DNA of 64,000 bases from assembly GCA_035493515.1 (NCBI GenBank), contig DATJID010000058.1:1201-65200 (forward strand). Reading direction: 5' to 3'. Positions 8,002-54,206 of the stretch are shown in pieces; the stretch's first letter is position 1, and each line of letters opens with the position of its first letter. The stretch comes from Candidatus Binataceae bacterium (lineage in GTDB: Bacteria; Desulfobacterota; Binatia; Binatales; Binataceae). Made by a program: the position numbers and the translations under genes. The notes beneath the pieces are model-generated. The model did not search any database. It worked only from the letters and a program-made list of their open reading frames with translations, and was not told the origin of the DNA.

Positions 8002-9387
8002 GTGGCGGCGGCATCCAGTGACGACATTTTAAGGCGTGTTCCTCCGCAGAATCTCGAGGCCGAGCAATCAGTGCTCGGCGCCATCCTGCTCGAGAACGAG
8101 GCTATCAACCAGGCCCTCGAAGTCCTCAACCCCGACGACTTCTATCGCGAGTCGCATCGCGAGATCTTCCGGGTGATGACCGAGCTGTCGGACCGCAGCC
8201 AGCCGGTCGACGCGATCACGATGACCGACGCGCTGCGCACGCGCGGCAAGCTCGAAGCGATCGGCGGCCCGGCCTACATCGCCGAGCTCGCCGCCTGCGT
8301 CCCGACCGCCTCCAACGTCGCGCACTATGCGCGCATCGTGCGCGAAAAGGCGGTGCTGCGCGCGCTGGCCTCGACCGCGACCGAGATCGCGTCGTCCGCC
8401 TACGACGCGCCCGCGCGGGTCGACGAATTCCTGGACGAGGCCGAGCACAAAATTTTCGAGATCTCCGAGCGCCGCATCCGCGCCTCGTTTCACACGATGC
8501 ACGAGCTGACGCGCGAGTCGCTCAAGATCATCGAGCGGCTTTACGAGCGCAAGGAGATGGTGACCGGCGTGCCGACCGGCTTCACCGACCTCGACCGCAT
8601 CACCGCCGGCCTGCAGCCGGCCGACCTGGTGGTGATTGCCGCGCGCCCCTCGATGGGCAAGACGGCGCTCGCGCTCAACATCGCGGCTTACGCGGCGACC
8701 GAGGCCGAGCCGCGCCGCGGCGTGGCCTTCTTCTCGCTGGAAATGTCCAAGGAGCAGCTCGTGTTGCGGCTGCTGTGCTCGGAGGCGCGGGTCGACAGCT
8801 CGAAGGCGCGCGCCGGGTATCTCGGCGAGCGCGATTTTCCCAAGCTCGCGGTGGCGGCGGCGCGTCTGGCCGAGGCTCCGATTTTCATCGACGACAGCTC
8901 CGACACTTCCGCAATCGTGCTGAAGGCGAAGTGCCGGCGCCTCGCGCGCGATTCCAGCGCCAACCTCGGACTCATCATCGTCGACTATCTGCAGCTGATG
9001 CGCGCGGCACGGCCGGGCGAGTCGCGCGAGAAAGAGATCGCCGAAATCTCGCGCTCGCTCAAGTCGCTGGCCAAGGAACTCCGCGTCCCGGTGATCGCGC
9101 TCTCACAGCTCAACCGCCAGGTCGAGACCCGCCCCGACCGCCGACCGCTGCTCGCCGACCTGCGTGAGTCAGGCGCAATCGAGCAGGACGCCGACGTGAT
9201 CGCGTTCATCTATCGCGACGAGATGTACCATCGCGACAGCAAGGAACCCGGCGTGGCTGAAGTGATCATCGCCAAGCAGCGCAACGGACCCACGGACACC
9301 GCCAAGCTCACCTACATCAGCCAGTTCACGCGCTTCGAGAATTACGCGCCCGAGGCCGGCTACTTCGAGGGCGCCGAAGAGGGTTAG
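8002..9387 (+). CDS. dnaB: Replicative DNA helicase DnaB
   Basis: PPQNLEAEQSVLGAILL, Walker A ARPSMGKTALALN, IIVDYLQLM, SQLNRQVE and RESGAIEQDADV. GTG start with GGGAGG upstream. Confidence 0.95.
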   Translation: MAAASSDDILRRVPPQNLEAEQSVLGAILLENEAINQALEVLNPDDFYRESHREIFRVMTELSDRSQPVDAITMTDALRTRGKLEAIGGPAYIAELAACVPTASNVAHYARIVREKAVLRALASTATEIASSAYDAPARVDEFLDEAEHKIFEISERRIRASFHTMHELTRESLKIIERLYERKEMVTGVPTGFTDLDRITAGLQPADLVVIAARPSMGKTALALNIAAYAATEAEPRRGVAFFSLEMSKEQLVLRLLCSEARVDSSKARAGYLGERDFPKLAVAAARLAEAPIFIDDSSDTSAIVLKAKCRRLARDSSANLGLIIVDYLQLMRAARPGESREKEIAEISRSLKSLAKELRVPVIALSQLNRQVETRPDRRPLLADLRESGAIEQDADVIAFIYRDEMYHRDSKEPGVAEVIIAKQRNGPTDTAKLTYISQFTRFENYAPEAGYFEGAEEG

Positions 9388-9488
9388 CGGGTCCGGCAAG
9401 AGCATTAGCGGGTCCGGCAAGAGCGTTAGCGGGTCCGGCAAGAGCGTTAGCGGGTCAGCGAAGGGCGTTAGGGTCTCGAGAAAGCGCG
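9384..9488. repeat. 21-bp tandem repeat: 3 near-perfect copies plus 2 decayed copies, starting on the dnaB stop codon
   Basis: TTAGCGGGTCCGGCAAGAGC(A/G) at 9384-9404, 9405-9425 and 9426-9446. Degenerate copies at 9447-9467 and 9468-9488. Confidence 0.85.
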
Positions 9489-9574
9489 CTGGCTTTCCCA
9501 CTGAACACTTCGATTCGATTTGCGACGCCGCGCGGCCCGGGCTAGTTTGCGCCCATAATCATTCGGAGGCGCAG

Positions 9575-45363: not shown

Positions 45364-46902
45364 TCAGTCGAGTCGATAGCGGCGCAGGCGGGCATAGAGC
45401 CGCTTGCGAGACACGCCCAACAGCTTGGCGGCGCGAAGTTTGTTGCCGCCGGTCGAGGCCAGCGCGCGCCGAATGAGATCGCGCTCGTTATCAATGAAAC
45501 TGAGGGTGGGTGAATCAGCCACCGGAACAGCTTGTGGAGCCGGGGCCATGCCTGCTGCGGCCGCGACCGCTGGGGGCAGGTCGGCAATGCGAATCGTATC
45601 TGCGGTTCCAAAAGTGAAAGCTGACTCAATCGCGTTCGAAAGCTCGCGCACGTTTCCGGGCCAGTTGTAACGATTCATCGAGTCCAGCGCCTGCGGTGCG
45701 ATTCCGACGATCGCCGCGGGCCTCATCATGCGCCGGTTGAAAAGCGCGATGAAATGGTCGGTCAGCAGCGGAATGTCGGCCAGGCGCTCGCGCAACGGTG
45801 GCACCTCGATCAGATTGACCTGAAGGCGGTAGTAGAGGTCCTCGCGCAGATGGCCCTCGCGGACCGCGACCTGCGGGTCGCGATTGCTGCAGGCGATCAC
45901 GCGGACGTCGAACGTCACTTCGCGGGTCGATCCGACCGGCCGTACCGTGCGTTCCTGAAGGGCCCGCAAAAGCTTGCTCTGGGTGGCCGCGCTCATCTCG
46001 GTGATTTCGTCGAGGAACAAAGAGCCGCCTTCGGCCGCGCGAAACAGTCCCGGGTAGTCGATGGTGGCGCCGCTGAACGCGCCGCGCTTGTAGCCAAAAA
46101 GCTCGCTCTCGATAAGTTCGCGGGGAATCGCGGCGCAATTGAGCGCGACGAACGGCATCGCCGGCGTGCGCGAGCACTCATGCACCGCCCGCGCCACCAA
46201 TTCCTTGCCAGTGCCACTTTCGCCGACGATCAGTACGGTGCCACGCACACCCGCCGCCGACTCGATCCGCGCGTACAGTCGCCGCATCACCGGCGTAGCA
46301 CCGACCAAACCATGAAAGTTGGTCCGCAGCTCTCCCGCGAGCAGGCCGGCCTCCTTCTCGAGGCTCTGAATCCGCGCCGCGGCGAGCGTTTCCTGGTTTC
46401 TGAAATAGGCCTCGGCCAGCGCGATAATCCGGCAGTGGCTGACCTTGTCGAACACTCGGTACATCGACCAATCCACGCCGTGCGGGAAATTCGCGATCGC
46501 GCTCTCCTCGAACAGATGCATTGAGGCGACGACCTCAGCGAATGGCACCCGCCGCTGCGCCAGCGTGACGCCAATCCGGCGCATCCGGATCACGAACTGC
46601 TCGAAGGTGCCCGCGCGCAAGGTCTCGGTCGTAGCGTCGAGGTCCAGGCCGCAGATCTCGAAGAACTCGCTTTGCGCGAGCGAACGCTCGTCGCCGAAAT
46701 GCAGCAGGTAGAGCTGATACCAATGCTCGAGGATTTCCCTGCGATGCCCGGCGAGCGCATCCATGACTGGTCCCAGCTCGGCCAGTTCATGGTCCCAGAG
46801 CAGATGATAGTAGCTGAGATTATTGCGATGGACCGCCGGTGCTGCAGGCGGCTTAGGTTGGGCCACGGACGATTTACTACCAGTCTTCGCCCCGCCCGGC
46901 AA
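45364..46902 (-). CDS. Sigma54-dependent transcriptional activator (bacterial enhancer-binding protein, EBP) with a non-receiver N-terminal sensor domain and a Fis-type HTH
   Basis: LIVGESGTGKELVARAVH, ESELFGYKRGAFSGA (GAFTGA variant), RVIACSNRD and a C-terminal GGNKLRAAKLLGVSRKRLYARL. Confidence 0.9.
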   Translation of the reverse strand: MPGGAKTGSKSSVAQPKPPAAPAVHRNNLSYYHLLWDHELAELGPVMDALAGHRREILEHWYQLYLLHFGDERSLAQSEFFEICGLDLDATTETLRAGTFEQFVIRMRRIGVTLAQRRVPFAEVVASMHLFEESAIANFPHGVDWSMYRVFDKVSHCRIIALAEAYFRNQETLAAARIQSLEKEAGLLAGELRTNFHGLVGATPVMRRLYARIESAAGVRGTVLIVGESGTGKELVARAVHECSRTPAMPFVALNCAAIPRELIESELFGYKRGAFSGATIDYPGLFRAAEGGSLFLDEITEMSAATQSKLLRALQERTVRPVGSTREVTFDVRVIACSNRDPQVAVREGHLREDLYYRLQVNLIEVPPLRERLADIPLLTDHFIALFNRRMMRPAAIVGIAPQALDSMNRYNWPGNVRELSNAIESAFTFGTADTIRIADLPPAVAAAAGMAPAPQAVPVADSPTLSFIDNERDLIRRALASTGGNKLRAAKLLGVSRKRLYARLRRYRLD

Positions 46903-46942: not shown

Positions 46943-47398
46943 TCATCCCGCGGCAGCGGTCTCTTTCGGCCTGACCACCAACACAGGCCGCGGCGAACAG
47001 CGGATCACTCGTTCAGCCACGCTGCCAATTAGAAAATGGCTAACTCCTTTGCGGCCATGCGTCGCCATCACGATAAGGTCGGCGTCCATATCATGGGCTT
47101 GGGAAACGATGCCGTCAGCGGCCTCGCCGCTGCGCGTCTCGATCTTGTACGCAACACCGCGACCTTCGAGGTGGGCAACTGTCAGCTTCTCCAACTCGAC
47201 CCGAGCGGTCTTTTCCCACACCGGGTAGGGGTCCATTGGGATCTGGGAAAACTCGGAGGCGTTGAGCGGTAGCGGAGTGACGTGCAATACGCAAAGCGTC
47301 GAGTTGCTTTGCTGCGCGATTTCACGGGCAAAGTGCAATACCACGGCAGAGGATTCGTCAAAATCCACGGCACATAAAATTCTGTTGAACAATTTCAT
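46943..47398 (-). CDS. Universal stress protein (UspA family)
   Basis: ILCAVDFDESS...LIVMATHGRKGVSHFLIGSVAERVIRCSPRPVLVV. Confidence 0.9.
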   Translation of the reverse strand: MKLFNRILCAVDFDESSAVVLHFAREIAQQSNSTLCVLHVTPLPLNASEFSQIPMDPYPVWEKTARVELEKLTVAHLEGRGVAYKIETRSGEAADGIVSQAHDMDADLIVMATHGRKGVSHFLIGSVAERVIRCSPRPVLVVRPKETAAAG

Positions 47399-47787: not shown

Positions 47788-47803
47788 GGGCACGCTCGTT
47801 GCT
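47788..47803 (+). promoter_or_regulatory. Sigma54 promoter candidate upstream of the porin-cytochrome-NirK-like operon
   Basis: GGGCACGCTCGTTGCT (GGCACG-N4-TTGCT). The -12 element is 43 nt upstream of the ATG at 47846. Confidence 0.55.
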
Positions 47804-49391: not shown

Positions 49392-49682
49392 ATGAAAGCG
49401 ATGACTGGAAAGCATCTTGCAAAAATCCTCGCGCTCGCAATCGCCGGGCTGACGCTCTCGGTCGCCGCCATGGCCGAAGAAAGCAAAACCGAAAAGCAAC
49501 AGATGTTTCTGGATGGTGCACGTCTGTGGCCCGTGTACTGCTCGCAATGCCATAACGCGCGCCCTGGATCGGAGTTTTCTCCCGCGCAGTGGGACATCAT
49601 CATGATGCACATGCGTACACAGTCGAATATGCCCGCGAAAGATGCGCGGGCAATCAAGGAGTATCTGAAGGGTGGCCGCTGA
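49392..49682 (+). CDS. Small periplasmic mono-haem cytochrome c
   Basis: Signal peptide plus CSQCH. Confidence 0.8.
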   Translation: MKAMTGKHLAKILALAIAGLTLSVAAMAEESKTEKQQMFLDGARLWPVYCSQCHNARPGSEFSPAQWDIIMMHMRTQSNMPAKDARAIKEYLKGGR

Positions 49683-49731: not shown

Positions 49732-50100
49732 ATGAAGATGATCGCTCGTCCGCTAGTCATTTCGGCTCTTGTTGTTGCACTCACCGCTATCTCATTTGGA
49801 ACAGACTACGCCCAGGATGATATCCCGGTCGCCACAACATTCCAGGTCTATTGCTCGCGCTGTCACGGAGACAAAGGGCAAGGTGACGGAGCGGATGGCG
49901 CGACCTTGTCGCCCAAACCGCGCGATTTTACCGACTGTGCGCTCATGAACAAGATACCCGACGCGACGATCGTAAAGGCGATCAAGAATGGCGGCGCCTC
50001 GGTCGACCTCAGCCGTGACATGCCAGCCTGGGGTGAAGAGCTTAAGGACAAGAAAATCAACGCGCTGGCTGCCTACGTCCGCACCTTCTGCCACAAGTAG
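49732..50100 (+). CDS. Periplasmic mono-haem cytochrome c (paralogue A)
   Basis: Signal peptide, CSRCHG, a DMPAW Met-ligand region, and an extra conserved Cys pair (DFTDC...RTFCHK). Confidence 0.8.
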   Translation: MKMIARPLVISALVVALTAISFGTDYAQDDIPVATTFQVYCSRCHGDKGQGDGADGATLSPKPRDFTDCALMNKIPDATIVKAIKNGGASVDLSRDMPAWGEELKDKKINALAAYVRTFCHK

Positions 50101-50128: not shown

Positions 50129-51052
50129 ATGGTTCCGCTAATTTCCGGTTTGCCGGCAAAGCCGCGATATATCTTGCACCGCGCTGCCAGGACCGCCGCG
50201 CTCGCGATGCTGGTCGTGGCTGCAACGGCCAGCCTGCCGCGTTCCGCGCATGCCTCGGAGAAAAGCTTCATGCTCACGGCGGAAAGAAAGCGGGTGAGCG
50301 TGGGCGGCGGATTGACCTACAACGCGTGGACCTACAATGGAACGGTGCCGGGACCCGTTCTGAAGGTTATGCAGGGTGATGAAGTGAAGATCGACCTGAT
50401 CAACCACACCAAGGATGCCCATGGGATAAACGTTCACGCGGCGCAGATATCGCCGCAACACTTCGACGGCGACCCGATGAAATCCGTTAGCTACAGCTTT
50501 CCAGCAGATGTCCCCGGCGTTTTCGTCTACCACTGCACCGCGGCGCCCATCCTCGATCACATCGCCAGCGGCATGTATGGGATGATGATCGTCGAACCGA
50601 AGGCCGGATGGCCCGACGGAAATGCGCAGGAGGTCACGATCGTGCAGGGCGAATTGTACGGCCTCCCAGACGCGCACGGATTCATCGTGGGATCCCATGG
50701 CAAAATGGTCGAGGCCCGGCCCGATTTCGTCGTGTTCAACGGAGCACTGCACAGATACGACGTCGAACATCCCATCGAAATCAAGGTTGGGAAGCTGGTT
50801 CGCGTGTTCTTTGCCAACGCCGGCCCCAACCTCACCTCCGCCTTTCACGTCACCGGCGCACTGTTCGACACAGTGTACAAGAGCGGCAACCCGGCCAATG
50901 CGCTGCATGGTCTGGATACTCTCGAGGTTCCTCCAAGCGACGGTGCGGTCTTCGAGTTTCGTGTTACCGAGCCCGGTGACTACCAGTTTATGGACCTGAA
51001 CCGGGCGCAACAGTATAAAGGCGCCAATGGAGTCTTTCGGGCCACGCCGTGA
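50129..51052 (+). CDS. NirK-like two-cupredoxin-domain copper protein (copper nitrite reductase family, atypical)
   Basis: AAGGAG 8 nt upstream and a Sec signal. HGINVHAA, VYHCTAAPILDHIASGMYGMMIV (type-1 Cu Cys/His/Met loop) and FVVFNG...SAFHVTGALFD. Confidence 0.8.
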   Translation: MVPLISGLPAKPRYILHRAARTAALAMLVVAATASLPRSAHASEKSFMLTAERKRVSVGGGLTYNAWTYNGTVPGPVLKVMQGDEVKIDLINHTKDAHGINVHAAQISPQHFDGDPMKSVSYSFPADVPGVFVYHCTAAPILDHIASGMYGMMIVEPKAGWPDGNAQEVTIVQGELYGLPDAHGFIVGSHGKMVEARPDFVVFNGALHRYDVEHPIEIKVGKLVRVFFANAGPNLTSAFHVTGALFDTVYKSGNPANALHGLDTLEVPPSDGAVFEFRVTEPGDYQFMDLNRAQQYKGANGVFRATP

Positions 51053-51127: not shown

Positions 51128-51484
51128 ATGTTGAAACTCCTCGTGGCCGCGCTCATCGGTGCTGTGGCGTGCACCGCACTAGCAGCGACACCGGCTTGGA
51201 CCGACAGCGCCGAAGAAAACTACGTGACCTACTGCGCGAGATGCCATGGGGAGGACGGGAACGGCGATGGCCCTTCGGTGGCCTCGCTGAAAATCACGCC
51301 GCAAAGCTTCAGCAGCTGCGCCCAAATGTGGAAGATCTCCGACGAGACAATGTTCAAGGCAATCAAGGGCGGCGGCGCCTCGGTTGGCTCGTCCGGCGAC
51401 ATGCCGGGCTGGAGCGTGGACCTCAGCGATGACGAAATTCACGACCTGGTGAATTACGTCCGCACTTTCTGCAAGAAGAAATAG
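51128..51484 (+). CDS. Periplasmic mono-haem cytochrome c (paralogue B)
   Basis: Signal peptide, CARCHG, DMPGW, and the same extra Cys pair (SFSSC...RTFCKKK). Clearly alignable to the 49732 product. Confidence 0.8.
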   Translation: MLKLLVAALIGAVACTALAATPAWTDSAEENYVTYCARCHGEDGNGDGPSVASLKITPQSFSSCAQMWKISDETMFKAIKGGGASVGSSGDMPGWSVDLSDDEIHDLVNYVRTFCKKK

Positions 51485-51639: not shown

Positions 51640-52158
51640 ATGAGTGTTATCAAGTATCTTGCCGCCGGCGCGGCTCTCGCGATGTTCTGCACGCTCGGCG
51701 TGGTTCATCCCGCAGCGGCGCAAACCGGCTCGGCCGCAGGCAAAACGCAGCGGCAGCTGGATATCGCGGCCGCGCGCGCAGACCGCAAAGCGATTGTCGG
51801 CGCAAATATGAATCTAAGCGAAGCGCAGGCCAAAGCGTTCTGGCCGCTCTACGACGCTTACGAGGCCCGCATGGATAAGCTCGACGATCGTCATGCCGCC
51901 GAGGTCAAAGCCTACGCCGAGCACTACCAGACGCTGACCGACAAGGATGCCTCGAACAAGCTCGACGAAGTGATAGCGATCAAGCAGGCGCGCCTCGACG
52001 TGCAGAAGGAATTTGTGCCCAAGTTCCGCGCCGCCACCGGGTCGATCAACACAACCCGGTTTTACCAGATTGATAACAAGCTGAGCGCGATGATTCAGTG
52101 CGACATCGCGCAGATCGTTCCGCTCGCCCGTCCGGGCACCAAGACCGCGAACGAGTAG
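51640..52158 (+). CDS. Periplasmic helical protein, possibly Spy/CpxP-like (LTXXQ-type)
   Basis: Signal peptide. The helical repeats include LSEAQAKAFWPLYDAY. GGGAGGAAA upstream. The functional call is weak. Confidence 0.45.
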   Translation: MSVIKYLAAGAALAMFCTLGVVHPAAAQTGSAAGKTQRQLDIAAARADRKAIVGANMNLSEAQAKAFWPLYDAYEARMDKLDDRHAAEVKAYAEHYQTLTDKDASNKLDEVIAIKQARLDVQKEFVPKFRAATGSINTTRFYQIDNKLSAMIQCDIAQIVPLARPGTKTANE

Positions 52159-52379: not shown

Positions 52380-52907
52380 TCAGGTTTTAGCGCCCAGCCG
52401 AATCGCCGTAGTGCAGTGATAGGCGAAGTTCTTCGCGCCGAAGCACCAGATGATGTCGTTATCCAGCTGCGGCCGGTAGATCGGCACCTGCCCCTTATTG
52501 TTGTCGCAGAAGCAGCGGTTGCATACGTCCTTACCGCAGCAGTCACGGTACGCAATGATGTATTCCTTGCCGTCGGTCGGATGCTGGCACGTCCCCACCC
52601 ACGAAGTTGGCGACGCCACCGTGCCCGGCGGGCACGAGGTCAGCGCTCCACCGCAGCAACTGCACAGGTAGCCGTCGAAGCCGCAGTAGCGCCAGTAATC
52701 GCAACTCGTGAGATCGCCGCCCTCGCCCTCTGCCGCGGCCCCGTTCTCACCGCTCATCTGCGCGTGCGCCTGCTCGACCACGCGGTTGATCGGCAACAGC
52801 GGGATCATCATCCCACCGACCAACGCCTTGCCCAGGTAGCCGAGAAAGCCGCGCCGCGAGGTCCGCTGCGCCACCGTTCGTGAAAGACGTTCTACCAGTC
52901 GATCCAT
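52380..52907 (-). CDS. mauA: TTQ-type amine dehydrogenase small (light) subunit, MauA/AauA-like
   Basis: TAT leader TSRRGFLGYLGKALVGG. CDYWRYCGFDGYLCSCCGG..CPPGT..SWVGTC..YIIAYRDCCGKDVC..CFC...DNDIIWCFGA..YHCT is almost collinear with known methylamine dehydrogenase light chains. This includes both TTQ tryptophans as I recall them (SW, IIW). AGGAGA upstream of the ATG at 52907. Confidence 0.9.
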   Translation of the reverse strand: MDRLVERLSRTVAQRTSRRGFLGYLGKALVGGMMIPLLPINRVVEQAHAQMSGENGAAAEGEGGDLTSCDYWRYCGFDGYLCSCCGGALTSCPPGTVASPTSWVGTCQHPTDGKEYIIAYRDCCGKDVCNRCFCDNNKGQVPIYRPQLDNDIIWCFGAKNFAYHCTTAIRLGAKT

Positions 52908-53051
52908 TCGCCGTCTCCTGTTTCGCGGGTGGCGCCGGATTTCCACCAGGCCGTTTCCCGGCGCTCCCCTGTTCCTGCCAATAGCACCGCCCGTTGCGCG
53001 ACGCCAGTCGCGCCCGCGTGGGACCTCAACTGGTCGCGTGTTCAGCAGCTA

Positions 53052-54206
53052 CTACAGCCCGAACAACGTGTAAGGGTGCTGGCTGACCTCGTTGACCGTG
53101 CCCAGGTATCTGCCTTTGAGCGCAGAGAAAATTTGCAGCTTCGACTCGCTTGTCACCAGCGCGAACAGCAGCGGGTTGTCGTCCTGGCTGACCTTGATCG
53201 CATTGGACTGCAAGGGCATCGGAATCCTGGCGACGCGCTTATGATCGTTGACGTCGTACACCCAGACCTCCGGACCGGCCGACTTTTGTGTCCACTCGCC
53301 GCCCTGATGCATCAGTACGAAAATCAGGTGTCCTGGCGTATAGCCGGCGACCGGCTGCCAGCCGCCTGGCCGCCAACCTTCCTTCTTCTCCGCATCGCTC
53401 AGCATCGACCACCTCTCTGCCGGCTCCGCCGGACTCACGCCGAGGTCCATCGGATAGACCATGCCATGGTAGCTGACGAAATAGGCTTTTTTGTCGATCA
53501 TCGCCGGCAACTGAAAGACCGGGTCCTTCTCGACGTCGAAAAACGGCTTGGCCGTGCGCTTTTGCGAAGTCGTCTTGGCGCTGTCGTCGAAGTCAGTCGT
53601 CAGCATCGAGCCATCGGCGCATACAGAGGCGAATTGGCGATCGCCCAGAATCAATATTTCGGAGCAGCCCGGCGTCTGAATCTCGCCGGCCACCTTCTTG
53701 CCGTCGAGGTCGACCGCAGTGACCGAGGTCGCGGGAGTCAAATTCAGCAGCAAGACAAAGCGCCCGTCAGGCGTCACGCCCATCGAACTCGGATCGGCCA
53801 GCGCGAGCTGACGTTTGCTGGTGATTGGAATCTCGCCAATTCGCGACAGATGAGTAGCGTCGTAGATCGACAGTACGTCTGTGCGATCGCCCTGCGTGCC
53901 GCGCGAATAAAAGGTATCCGCCAGGTAGAAAAATTTGTGGTCGGGTGACGGCGCGAACATTGCGGCCAAACCGCCCGAAAGGTTGCCGAGTACTTTGTGC
54001 GTATCGCCGTCGATCAGCACGATCGGCGTCATCATTATGGAACCTGATAACGGAGTCATGGTCGCGATCCAATGCGGCGAATAGGCCGGCAGTTGCAAGA
54101 CCGTGACTTGTTCATTGGGTGGCATCTGGGCGAGCGCTCCCGGGCCGCCGCGTCCCATCACGACCATGAGGATTGCGAGGAAAAGGAATCCCAACCTTTT
54201 AGTCAT
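53052..54206 (-). CDS. mauB: Amine dehydrogenase large (heavy) subunit, MauB/AauB-like beta-propeller
   Basis: Signal peptide. DTFYSRGTQGDRTDVLSIYD, GVTPDGRFVLLLNLTPATSVTAVD, the Cys pair GCSEILI...SVCADGS, and GWRPGGWQ. Confidence 0.9.
   Translation of the reverse strand: MTKRLGFLFLAILMVVMGRGGPGALAQMPPNEQVTVLQLPAYSPHWIATMTPLSGSIMMTPIVLIDGDTHKVLGNLSGGLAAMFAPSPDHKFFYLADTFYSRGTQGDRTDVLSIYDATHLSRIGEIPITSKRQLALADPSSMGVTPDGRFVLLLNLTPATSVTAVDLDGKKVAGEIQTPGCSEILILGDRQFASVCADGSMLTTDFDDSAKTTSQKRTAKPFFDVEKDPVFQLPAMIDKKAYFVSYHGMVYPMDLGVSPAEPAERWSMLSDAEKKEGWRPGGWQPVAGYTPGHLIFVLMHQGGEWTQKSAGPEVWVYDVNDHKRVARIPMPLQSNAIKVSQDDNPLLFALVTSESKLQIFSALKGRYLGTVNEVSQHPYTLFGL

Follow-up and report, generated by a model that had tools for sequence, protein, structure and literature searches.

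RESULTS

A NirK-like protein with an intact type-1 and an incomplete type-2 copper site

The window analysed here is a stretch of 64,000 nucleotides of contig DATJID010000058.1, from a Candidatus Binataceae metagenome-assembled genome (MAG; 2.5 Mb, 75% complete). It contains a gene for a two-domain cupredoxin (P0001) related to the copper nitrite reductase NirK. We find that this NirK-like protein keeps all four ligands of the blue type-1 Cu site but lacks one His ligand of the type-2 site as well as the catalytic Asp. In the reading that we favour, with a probability of about 0.6, it would be a type-1-only electron carrier working with the products of the two adjoining cytochrome c genes, cytA and cytB, and not a nitrite reductase. 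The functions proposed below for this protein and its operon are deduced from sequence.

The reading frame starts at an ATG (50129) with AAGGAG, a strong ribosome-binding site, 7 nt upstream, ends with the stop codon at 51050-51052 and is separated by 28 nt from the stop of the preceding cytA. A Sec-type signal (~residues 15-42, cleavage site AHA/SE) leaves ~265 mature residues. This is the length given in a preliminary description of the same DNA, where it was considered short; the value is right, but it is ordinary for class II NirKs, whose PDB chains count 285-300 aa. The Pfam models Cu-oxidase_3 (E 2.5e-17) and Cu-oxidase_2 (E 5e-12) matched the protein, and the NirK equivalog of NCBIfam (TIGR02376) scored 165.3 bits, below its curated cut-off of 296.3. 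The closest solved relatives found by phmmer were class II NirKs, first that of Geobacillus (E ~1e-52), then those of Hyphomicrobium, Bradyrhizobium ORS 375, AniA and Nitrosomonas NirK. An AlphaFold2 (AF2) model with 34 relatives as input reached a mean pLDDT of 85, with a signal helix of low confidence at residues 15-34, and its first 50 Foldseek matches in the PDB were all NirK (TM 0.75-0.87). As modelled, the protein has the two-cupredoxin-domain fold of NirK, and by homology it would be periplasmic and trimeric.

All four type-1 Cu ligands were found upon alignment to NirK (Table 1). The two segments in which they had been recognized earlier, HGINVH (His98 to His103) and YHCTAAPILDHIASGM (His135, Cys136, His144 and Met149), are both present. 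In NirK, two subunits together supply the three His of the type-2 site. In the window protein this triad is incomplete: His103 and His135 are kept and the third position is Leu290, with no other His in the C-terminal strand upon inspection of its sequence. In the catalytic pair of NirK, the Asp98 position is Asn101 and the His255 equivalent, His240, is kept. The phmmer alignment to the solved Geobacillus enzyme paired HGINVH with HSMDFH, YHC with YHC, SAFHVTG with SSFHVVG and FMDLNRA with IVTHQFN. Both substitutions proposed in the preliminary description were thereby confirmed, Asn101 being set on Asp98 and Leu290 of FMDLNRAQQ on His294 (classical His306): the catalytic positions hold Asn and Leu, not Asp and His.

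The top-scoring Geobacillus chains read HSMNFH, not HSMDFH, opposite HGINVH. The PDB 3X1F chain, titled 'H294M mutant', differs from its sibling chains exactly at the Leu290 column, which pins the His294 assignment independently. Furthermore, 121 of about 140 distant NirK representatives read D-H-H-H-H (classical positions 98, 100, 135, 255 and 306) in the same columns, thus validating the assignments. The neighbouring Asp289 was considered as a replacement carboxylate ligand and rejected: in 66/143 canonical NirKs an Asp precedes the His, and it faces away on the strand.

Relaxation of the catalytic positions throughout the clade

A word-indexed search gave 3013 relatives, of which the best 120 (56-90% identity) were aligned. 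These best 120 originated from soil and peat metagenomes, and the named ones were Candidatus Binataceae. About 140 more distant NirK representatives (143 in the Arg292 count) served as outgroup, and the alignment was made of envelope-cut cores. The clade forms a single cluster, with the next relatives at no more than 46% identity in an exhaustive search of 50%-identity representatives.

Counting the window protein, type-1 ligands were almost completely retained in the clade: His in 121/121, Cys in 120/121, His in 120/121 and Met in 119/121. The catalytic positions were far less uniform among the 120 sequences. The Asp98 position was occupied by N, D, Y, E, A, S or F. His was present in 88 sequences at position 100 (otherwise Q, Y, L, M, A, E, N, P, R or G), in 111 at position 135 (otherwise T or N) and in 89 at position 255, where 24 carried Y and the others N or Q. 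At position 306, L was found in 66, Q in 27 and H in only 10, the rest having S, T, E, A, M or I. The canonical D-H-H-H-H set was seen in 0/120. Even orthologues 79-87% identical to the window protein have Tyr or Gln in place of His240 and Gln in place of Leu290; the His of SAFHVTG noted earlier is thus present but at an unconserved position. Column entropy gave a similar picture. For the clade, His135 lay at 34% and the other four of the five type-2 positions above 56-81% of the core columns, against the 0-22nd percentile for the type-1 ligands; in the outgroup, all nine positions were at the 1st-10th percentile. Loss of the type-2 site thus appears to be a property of the clade, not an accident of one gene.

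Across 34 diverse members, type-1 ligands and 57 other columns were invariant, and no additional invariant His or Cys able to form a new metal site was found among them. The ratio of nonsynonymous to synonymous substitution rates (dN/dS) of the window gene, measured against two orthologues ~79% identical, was 0.17. The NirK-like gene evolves under purifying selection.

A single loss of the third type-2 ligand

We then placed 86 NirK cores from genome contigs in a maximum-likelihood tree. A clade of 34 rows (support 100) holds mostly Binataceae, plus one MAG each under the labels Methylomirabilota, Acidiferrales and 'Betaproteobacteria'. The members at its base (L041-L046, L052) are canonical and without cytochrome neighbours. 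Every copy with cytochrome neighbours falls in a subclade of 26 rows (support 91), within which only L040 (D-H-H-H-H) and L031/L035 (Y-H-H-H-H) retain all His ligands. By parsimony, one change suffices for the loss of His306 on this tree, which argues for one loss followed by drift elsewhere, not for many parallel losses. The clade, centred on Binatia, appears from these sequences to descend from a genuine NirK.

Residues around the lost ligand have also changed. Position 292, two residues past 290 and on the same strand face, is Arg in 86/120 clade sequences versus 3/143 of the outgroup. Arg is the usual residue there in members that have lost His290, and every clade member retaining His290 retains Met292. 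Asn291 occurs in 77/120 clade sequences, and the Ile257 equivalent is Ala, Thr or Ser in the clade (Thr in the window protein). From these patterns, Arg292 probably fills the vacated copper pocket.

As a separate observation, the cassette members with a complete type-2 His set, L040 (JAJYVB010000051.1, 1289-4701), L031 and L035, look like forms that preceded the loss.

Genetic coupling to cytochromes c

The NirK-like gene is the fourth in a six-gene same-strand array: porin, cytS, cytA, NirK-like, cytB and p172. The flanking cytochromes had been described as paralogues sharing an extra Cys pair; they are indeed 44% identical, with the pair in each sequence. A cytA-type gene lies directly 5′ of the NirK-like gene in ~24 clade loci, versus none of ~50 canonical NirK loci. 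At least 17 clade loci combine porin, cytS, cytochrome c and NirK-like genes, and further ones have the minimal pair of cytochrome c and NirK-like genes; none of the ~50 canonical loci examined carries any of these partners. The partners in the operon are all constrained, with dN/dS of 0.06-0.36.

Six genomes of the same genus (L103-L108) carry the operon without cytA and the NirK-like gene. In their locus, minus-strand genes for an enhancer-binding protein and a universal stress protein (USP) are followed by porin, cytS, a cytochrome gene of the cytB type and p172, with mauA-mauB in convergent orientation beyond them. Among the genus genomes, cytA and the NirK-like gene are inserted between cytS and cytB only in the window's genome and in two others (G014 and G016). 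Since the operon is present without the pair in six genomes, cytA and the NirK-like gene represent an add-on module, of which the operon is independent. The cytA and NirK-like genes are inherited together, as a module of two, and cytB is part of the core operon; cytB orthologues in the NirK-less operons are 61-63% identical to that of the window. An optional pair of this kind is more easily seen as an additional relay or branch than as a terminal enzyme that the operon cannot do without.

A probable type-1-only carrier and its alternatives

One type-2 ligand and the catalytic Asp are gone, and purifying selection has kept the fold, its type-1 site and the cytochrome partner; a type-1-only carrier seems the most economical explanation. 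In this scheme the blue type-1 Cu centre would be kept, and the type-2 Cu site at the subunit interface would no longer be built. His306 would have been lost once, after which Asp98, His100, His255 and, less so, His135 would have drifted, and Arg two residues past the lost His would have become common, probably filling the pocket. CytA would reduce or oxidise the type-1 Cu of the NirK-like protein, which would hand single electrons to another carrier such as CytB; we infer both the direction and the partners of this electron flow. The protein would not reduce nitrite but act as a large cupredoxin relay, in a respiratory branch of the periplasm that is switched on by stress or low oxygen. The earlier suggestion that the protein may not be a canonical nitrite reductase is well supported by Asn and Leu at the catalytic positions, by the TIGR02376 score below cut-off and by clade-wide relaxed type-2 constraint with strict type-1 ligands. 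Of the two roles then put forward, electron transfer or a different chemistry, the first is favoured and the second is possible, though less likely.

Several points weigh against the carrier. His103 and His135 are retained in the window protein's subclade, and His240 also in the window protein, such that copper bound by two His, or an anion pocket without metal that includes Arg292 and Asn291, is possible; the conserved new polar residues of the pocket could mean a new function rather than filling. A 90-kDa trimer is a costly electron carrier when the genomes also encode a single-domain cupredoxin. The presence in the cassette of the canonical L040 and of a Y-H-H-H-H subclade indicates that the cassette is compatible with catalysis. 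Finally, an independent-pairs test of cassette against site loss had no power, with at most 2 independent pairs: the association is one evolutionary event and bears no statistical weight.

Alternatively, the protein could still be an enzyme, with a remodelled pocket (His103, His135, His240, Asn101, Asn291 and Arg292) binding copper by two His or an anion without metal. It would catalyse or sense a different reaction, with nitrite, nitric oxide (NO), O2, hydroxylamine or another small anion, and electrons would still arrive from the type-1 Cu via the Cys136-His135 bridge. Retention of His135 and His103 equivalents in most of the clade (111/120 and 88/120), the clade-specific Asn291 and Arg292, the exchange of Ile257 for Ala, Thr or Ser and the full His sets of L040, L031 and L035 would all suit such an enzyme. 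However, His100, His135 and His255 are each variously substituted across the clade, and His240 and Leu290 change even between close orthologues. No single ligand set is therefore conserved, unlike what is expected of a working catalytic metal site. Moreover, Asp98 and His255 are both said, in work of Kataoka and colleagues in 2000 (cited in PMC4770552), to be needed for NirK activity. We thus regard a remodelled enzyme as unlikely.

A wider proposal concerns the whole operon, which could form a conduit, induced at low oxygen, for electrons passing from the outer membrane into the periplasm. The porin and CytS would form a split porin-cytochrome unit like Cyc2/MtoAB, and the NirK scaffold would be exapted as a relay with blue copper, comparable to rusticyanin in the rus operon. 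We hold this to be rather improbable. If true, abundant soil Binatia would exchange electrons with extracellular Fe or humics, and a nitrite reductase would have been turned into an electron wire.

Mixed trimers with a second NirK paralogue could in principle restore a three-His site at some interfaces, the window protein giving His100 and His135 and its partner His255 and His306. The host genome indeed encodes such a paralogue, 60% identical (G000 contig C35:19688-20566, minus strand; L007, also L019 at 8689-9561). Its pattern, D-H-Q-H-H (His135 to Gln, FLYQCS), is complementary, without His135 and with His306, and is the same in all same-genus copies aligned (L007, L011-L018). Likewise, another MAG has a degenerate cassette copy (L036) and a canonical one (L044). 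Against this, the D-H-Q-H-H paralogue is found in 14/16 genus genomes, most of them without the window type, and is thus independent of it; the two genes are unlinked and their neighbours differ, the paralogue adjoining USP and luciferase-like oxidoreductase genes with no cytochromes nearby. The rebuilt site would still have Asn for the catalytic Asp, and complementation fails for the many clade members that have also lost His100. Mixed trimers are therefore highly improbable in our view.

We also give very little credence to an amicyanin-like role, in which the protein would accept electrons from the adjoining tryptophan tryptophylquinone (TTQ) amine-dehydrogenase-like enzyme encoded at 52380-54206 on the minus strand and pass them on to cytochrome c. 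A precedent for such a chain is that of methylamine dehydrogenase (the TTQ enzyme), amicyanin (the cupredoxin) and cytochrome c551i. No amicyanin gene adjoins mauB-mauA, and this pair is the convergent neighbour of the porin operon, in synteny, in at least eight genus genomes. However, six of those genomes share the neighbourhood without the NirK-like gene, and synteny inside one genus is expected from kinship alone. No MauA/MauB homologue was present within 9 kb of the cassette in the other genera examined, and each of the five genomes checked encodes a single-domain cupredoxin (PF00127).

A decaying NirK relic without function, which the loss and variability of the catalytic residues might suggest, is hardly credible given the intact frame with its strong ribosome-binding site, the low dN/dS, the invariant type-1 ligands and 57 further columns, the conserved gene linkage and a clade spread over at least 120 distinct 90%-identity clusters in many soils.

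Comparison with known copper proteins

The window protein shares the fold (TM 0.75-0.87) of class II NirK/AniA enzymes (EC 1.7.2.1), such as those of Geobacillus thermodenitrificans (3WKQ, 3X1E), Neisseria gonorrhoeae (AniA, 1KBV), Nitrosomonas europaea (4KNS) and the core domain of Bradyrhizobium ORS 375 (6THE), with 33-37% identity in structural alignments and a sequence E-value of ~1e-52. It also has their type-1 site (His, Cys, His, Met) with the Cys-His dipeptide, a similar length, periplasmic export and a cytochrome c gene of its own alongside, which many NirK systems likewise have. It differs by Leu for His306, Asn for Asp98, Arg for Leu308 and Thr for Ile257, by an equivalog score far below cut-off and by the relaxed catalytic positions of its clade. 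In this respect it resembles the engineered HSMNFH chains and the H294M mutant combined.

Amicyanin, pseudoazurin, azurin and rusticyanin fulfil the role proposed here: one type-1 Cu per polypeptide, transfer of single electrons and, often, c-type cytochrome partners. These are single-domain cupredoxins of ~100 aa, in contrast to the two-domain, presumably trimeric window protein of enzyme descent, which the amicyanin model TIGR02657 matched at E 0.0097 (16.3 bits, cut-off 110.2).

Two-domain multicopper oxidases (the small laccase SLAC; Nitrosomonas blue copper oxidase, 3GDC; Nitrosopumilus Nmar_1354, 9CCK) share its two-cupredoxin and presumed trimeric architecture, with a metal site at the interface in the ancestors, and matched it at E 1e-23 to 1e-29. 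Their trinuclear Cu cluster is bound via four HxH motifs (eight His, including HCH). The window protein has YHCT, not HCH, HGINVH is H-x4-H, and domain 2 is without HxH pairs. With YHC replacing HCH and H-x4-H replacing HxH, a trinuclear site is impossible. We considered 9CCK as a precedent for a heterotrimeric NirK and rejected it, as it is a two-domain multicopper oxidase whose 'heterotrimer' results from proteolysis.

Genetic coupling of a NirK-family protein to c-type cytochromes that feed its type-1 Cu is also seen in the ncgABC-nirK operon of Nitrosomonas europaea and in haem-c-fused NirKs (Ralstonia pickettii, 3ZIY). The NirKs of these systems are catalytically complete, while the window member is without catalytic site, and its partner set (coiled-coil porin, small monohaem protein and two class-I cytochromes) is unlike that of ncgABC-nirK.

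Annotation of the clade

Many clade members are labelled "nitrite reductase (NO-forming)" by JGI and "multicopper oxidase domain-containing protein" by NCBI. The Binataceae MAG Bin.006_Pasture was reported as nirK-positive (PMC9455692), and the sole NirK homologue that we recovered from it (L035) is one of the cassette members and carries Tyr in place of the catalytic Asp. If such genes are counted as nirK, a lineage abundant in soil and peat would be credited with too much denitrification potential. The clade would further offer a natural case of an enzyme becoming a probable electron carrier, through ligand loss, drift and gain of a pocket Arg under purifying selection. It also draws attention to a lineage-specific redox operon of the periplasm, so far unstudied and seemingly of sigma-54 type, in uncultured Binatia; this operon comprises porin, three cytochromes and a helical protein. 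A literature search found no paper on a type-2-less NirK clade, Binatia NirK, H294M or this cassette.

Other genes of the operon and its regulation

Positions of all features are collected in Table 1.

Table 1. Genes, regulatory element and copper-site residues in the window
Feature	Position	Strand	Basis or remark
Sigma-54 enhancer-binding protein, N-terminal sensor domain without assignment	45364..46902	-	Sigma54_activat E 1.3e-62, HTH_8
USP, divergent from the operon	46943..47398	-	Pfam Usp E 3.9e-33
Sigma-54 -24/-12-like element GGGCACGCTCGTTGC	47788..47802	+	44 nt 5′ of porin ATG
Porin-like outer-membrane protein, 513 aa	47846..49387	+	Signal peptide, ~74-residue coiled-coil helix, ~16-stranded barrel, C-terminal Phe, no Cys
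cytS, small exported CxxCH protein (CSQCH), ~93 aa from Met11 of the 49371 open reading frame (ORF)	49401..49682	+	Sequence
cytA, class-I monohaem cytochrome c (CSRCH), extra Cys pair	49732..50100	+	Pfam Cytochrome_CBB3 E 5.6e-12
NirK-like two-domain cupredoxin P0001, 307 aa	50129..51052	+	Pfam, phmmer, AF2/Foldseek
His98, type-1 ligand (classical His95)	50420-50422	+	Alignment to Geobacillus NirK
Asn101, catalytic Asp98 position	50429-50431	+	Alignment
His103, first type-2 His (His100)	50435-50437	+	Alignment
His135, type-2 ligand position	50531-50533	+	Alignment
Cys136, type-1 ligand (classical Cys136)	50534-50536	+	Alignment
His144, type-1 ligand (classical His145)	50558-50560	+	Alignment
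Met149, type-1 ligand (classical Met150)	50573-50575	+	Alignment
His240, catalytic His255 equivalent	50846-50848	+	Alignment
Leu290, third type-2 ligand position (His294 Geobacillus, His306 classical)	50996-50998	+	Alignment
Arg292, clade-specific, Leu308 equivalent	51002-51004	+	Alignment
cytB, monohaem cytochrome c (CARCH), same extra Cys pair	51128..51484	+	Pfam
p172, exported, probably all-helical, 172 aa, last gene of the operon	51640..52158	+	No family match
TTQ amine-dehydrogenase light chain (MauA)	52380-52946	-	TIGR02659, 218 bits, above cut-off
TTQ amine-dehydrogenase heavy chain (MauB)	53052-54206	-	192 bits, below cut-off

The porin sequence had no match in Pfam, NCBIfam or the PDB. 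Its AF2 model (pLDDT 62) matched 16-stranded trimeric porins (OmpU, OprP, OmpC) and the stalked OmpM1 in Foldseek with target TM of 0.5-0.64; as the model is of low confidence, we claim the fold class alone. Its orthologues in cassette loci are 45-82% identical, with a dN/dS of 0.12. Among 41 class-level genomes searched, this porin family was seen only in the window's own family, in 17/24 genomes. CytS is conserved beside the porin and shows the tightest constraint in the operon (dN/dS 0.055); Cytochrome_CBB3 and CcoP matched it only below threshold, leaving it without family assignment. The start of cytA is probably Met21 of the 49672 ORF, because its orthologues are 122 aa. Orthologues of p172, 84-98% identical, follow the cytochrome in seven loci of the same genus (L021 and L103-L108).

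According to the preliminary description, the NirK-like gene stands behind a sigma54 promoter match. The match exists but lies 2.3 kb upstream of that gene, before the porin that heads the operon. This candidate promoter element reads GGGCAC-N5-TTGC, lies 44 nt upstream of the first gene and has the gene for an enhancer-binding protein nearby. In five further same-genus loci, all close kin, GGGCA(C/T)-N5-TTGCT is found at -57 to -73, with a background of 0.035 per 700 nt; at that stringency the motif was not found in other genera. Orthologues of the enhancer-binding protein occur at the same position in L103 and L104 (83-96% identical) and 5 kb from the cassette in L048 (52% identical). It is presumed to be the activator of the operon. 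The position of the USP gene is likewise conserved (L001, L020/L023, L103, L104, L108), and clade members elsewhere adjoin genes for USP, Hsp20, CBS, hemerythrin and hibernation factors. The proposed inducing signal is stress or low oxygen.

Observations on the host genome and genus

None of mauC, mauD, mauE and mauG was found near mauA/mauB of the window, and genomes of the genus have 1-4 MauA paralogues each. Judged by its sequence, the D-H-Q-H-H paralogue may represent a NirK whose catalytic copper is bound by two His and one Gln. In G016 (contig C13:642729-643590), a paralogue of this type is apparently split in two adjacent frames (244 + 156 aa), which could reflect a frameshift, an assembly error or a pseudogene. 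Neither NarG nor NapA scored above cut-off in the host MAG and four more complete genomes of the genus, although absence from a MAG is not proof. Two genus genomes also contain frames of ~800 aa of the haem-copper oxidase family (G001 contig C3:308963-310312 and G014 contig C1:12360-13709), with weak COX1 scores of 177-182 bits. These could be quinol-type NO reductases, which, if so, would bear on the handling of NO by the genus.

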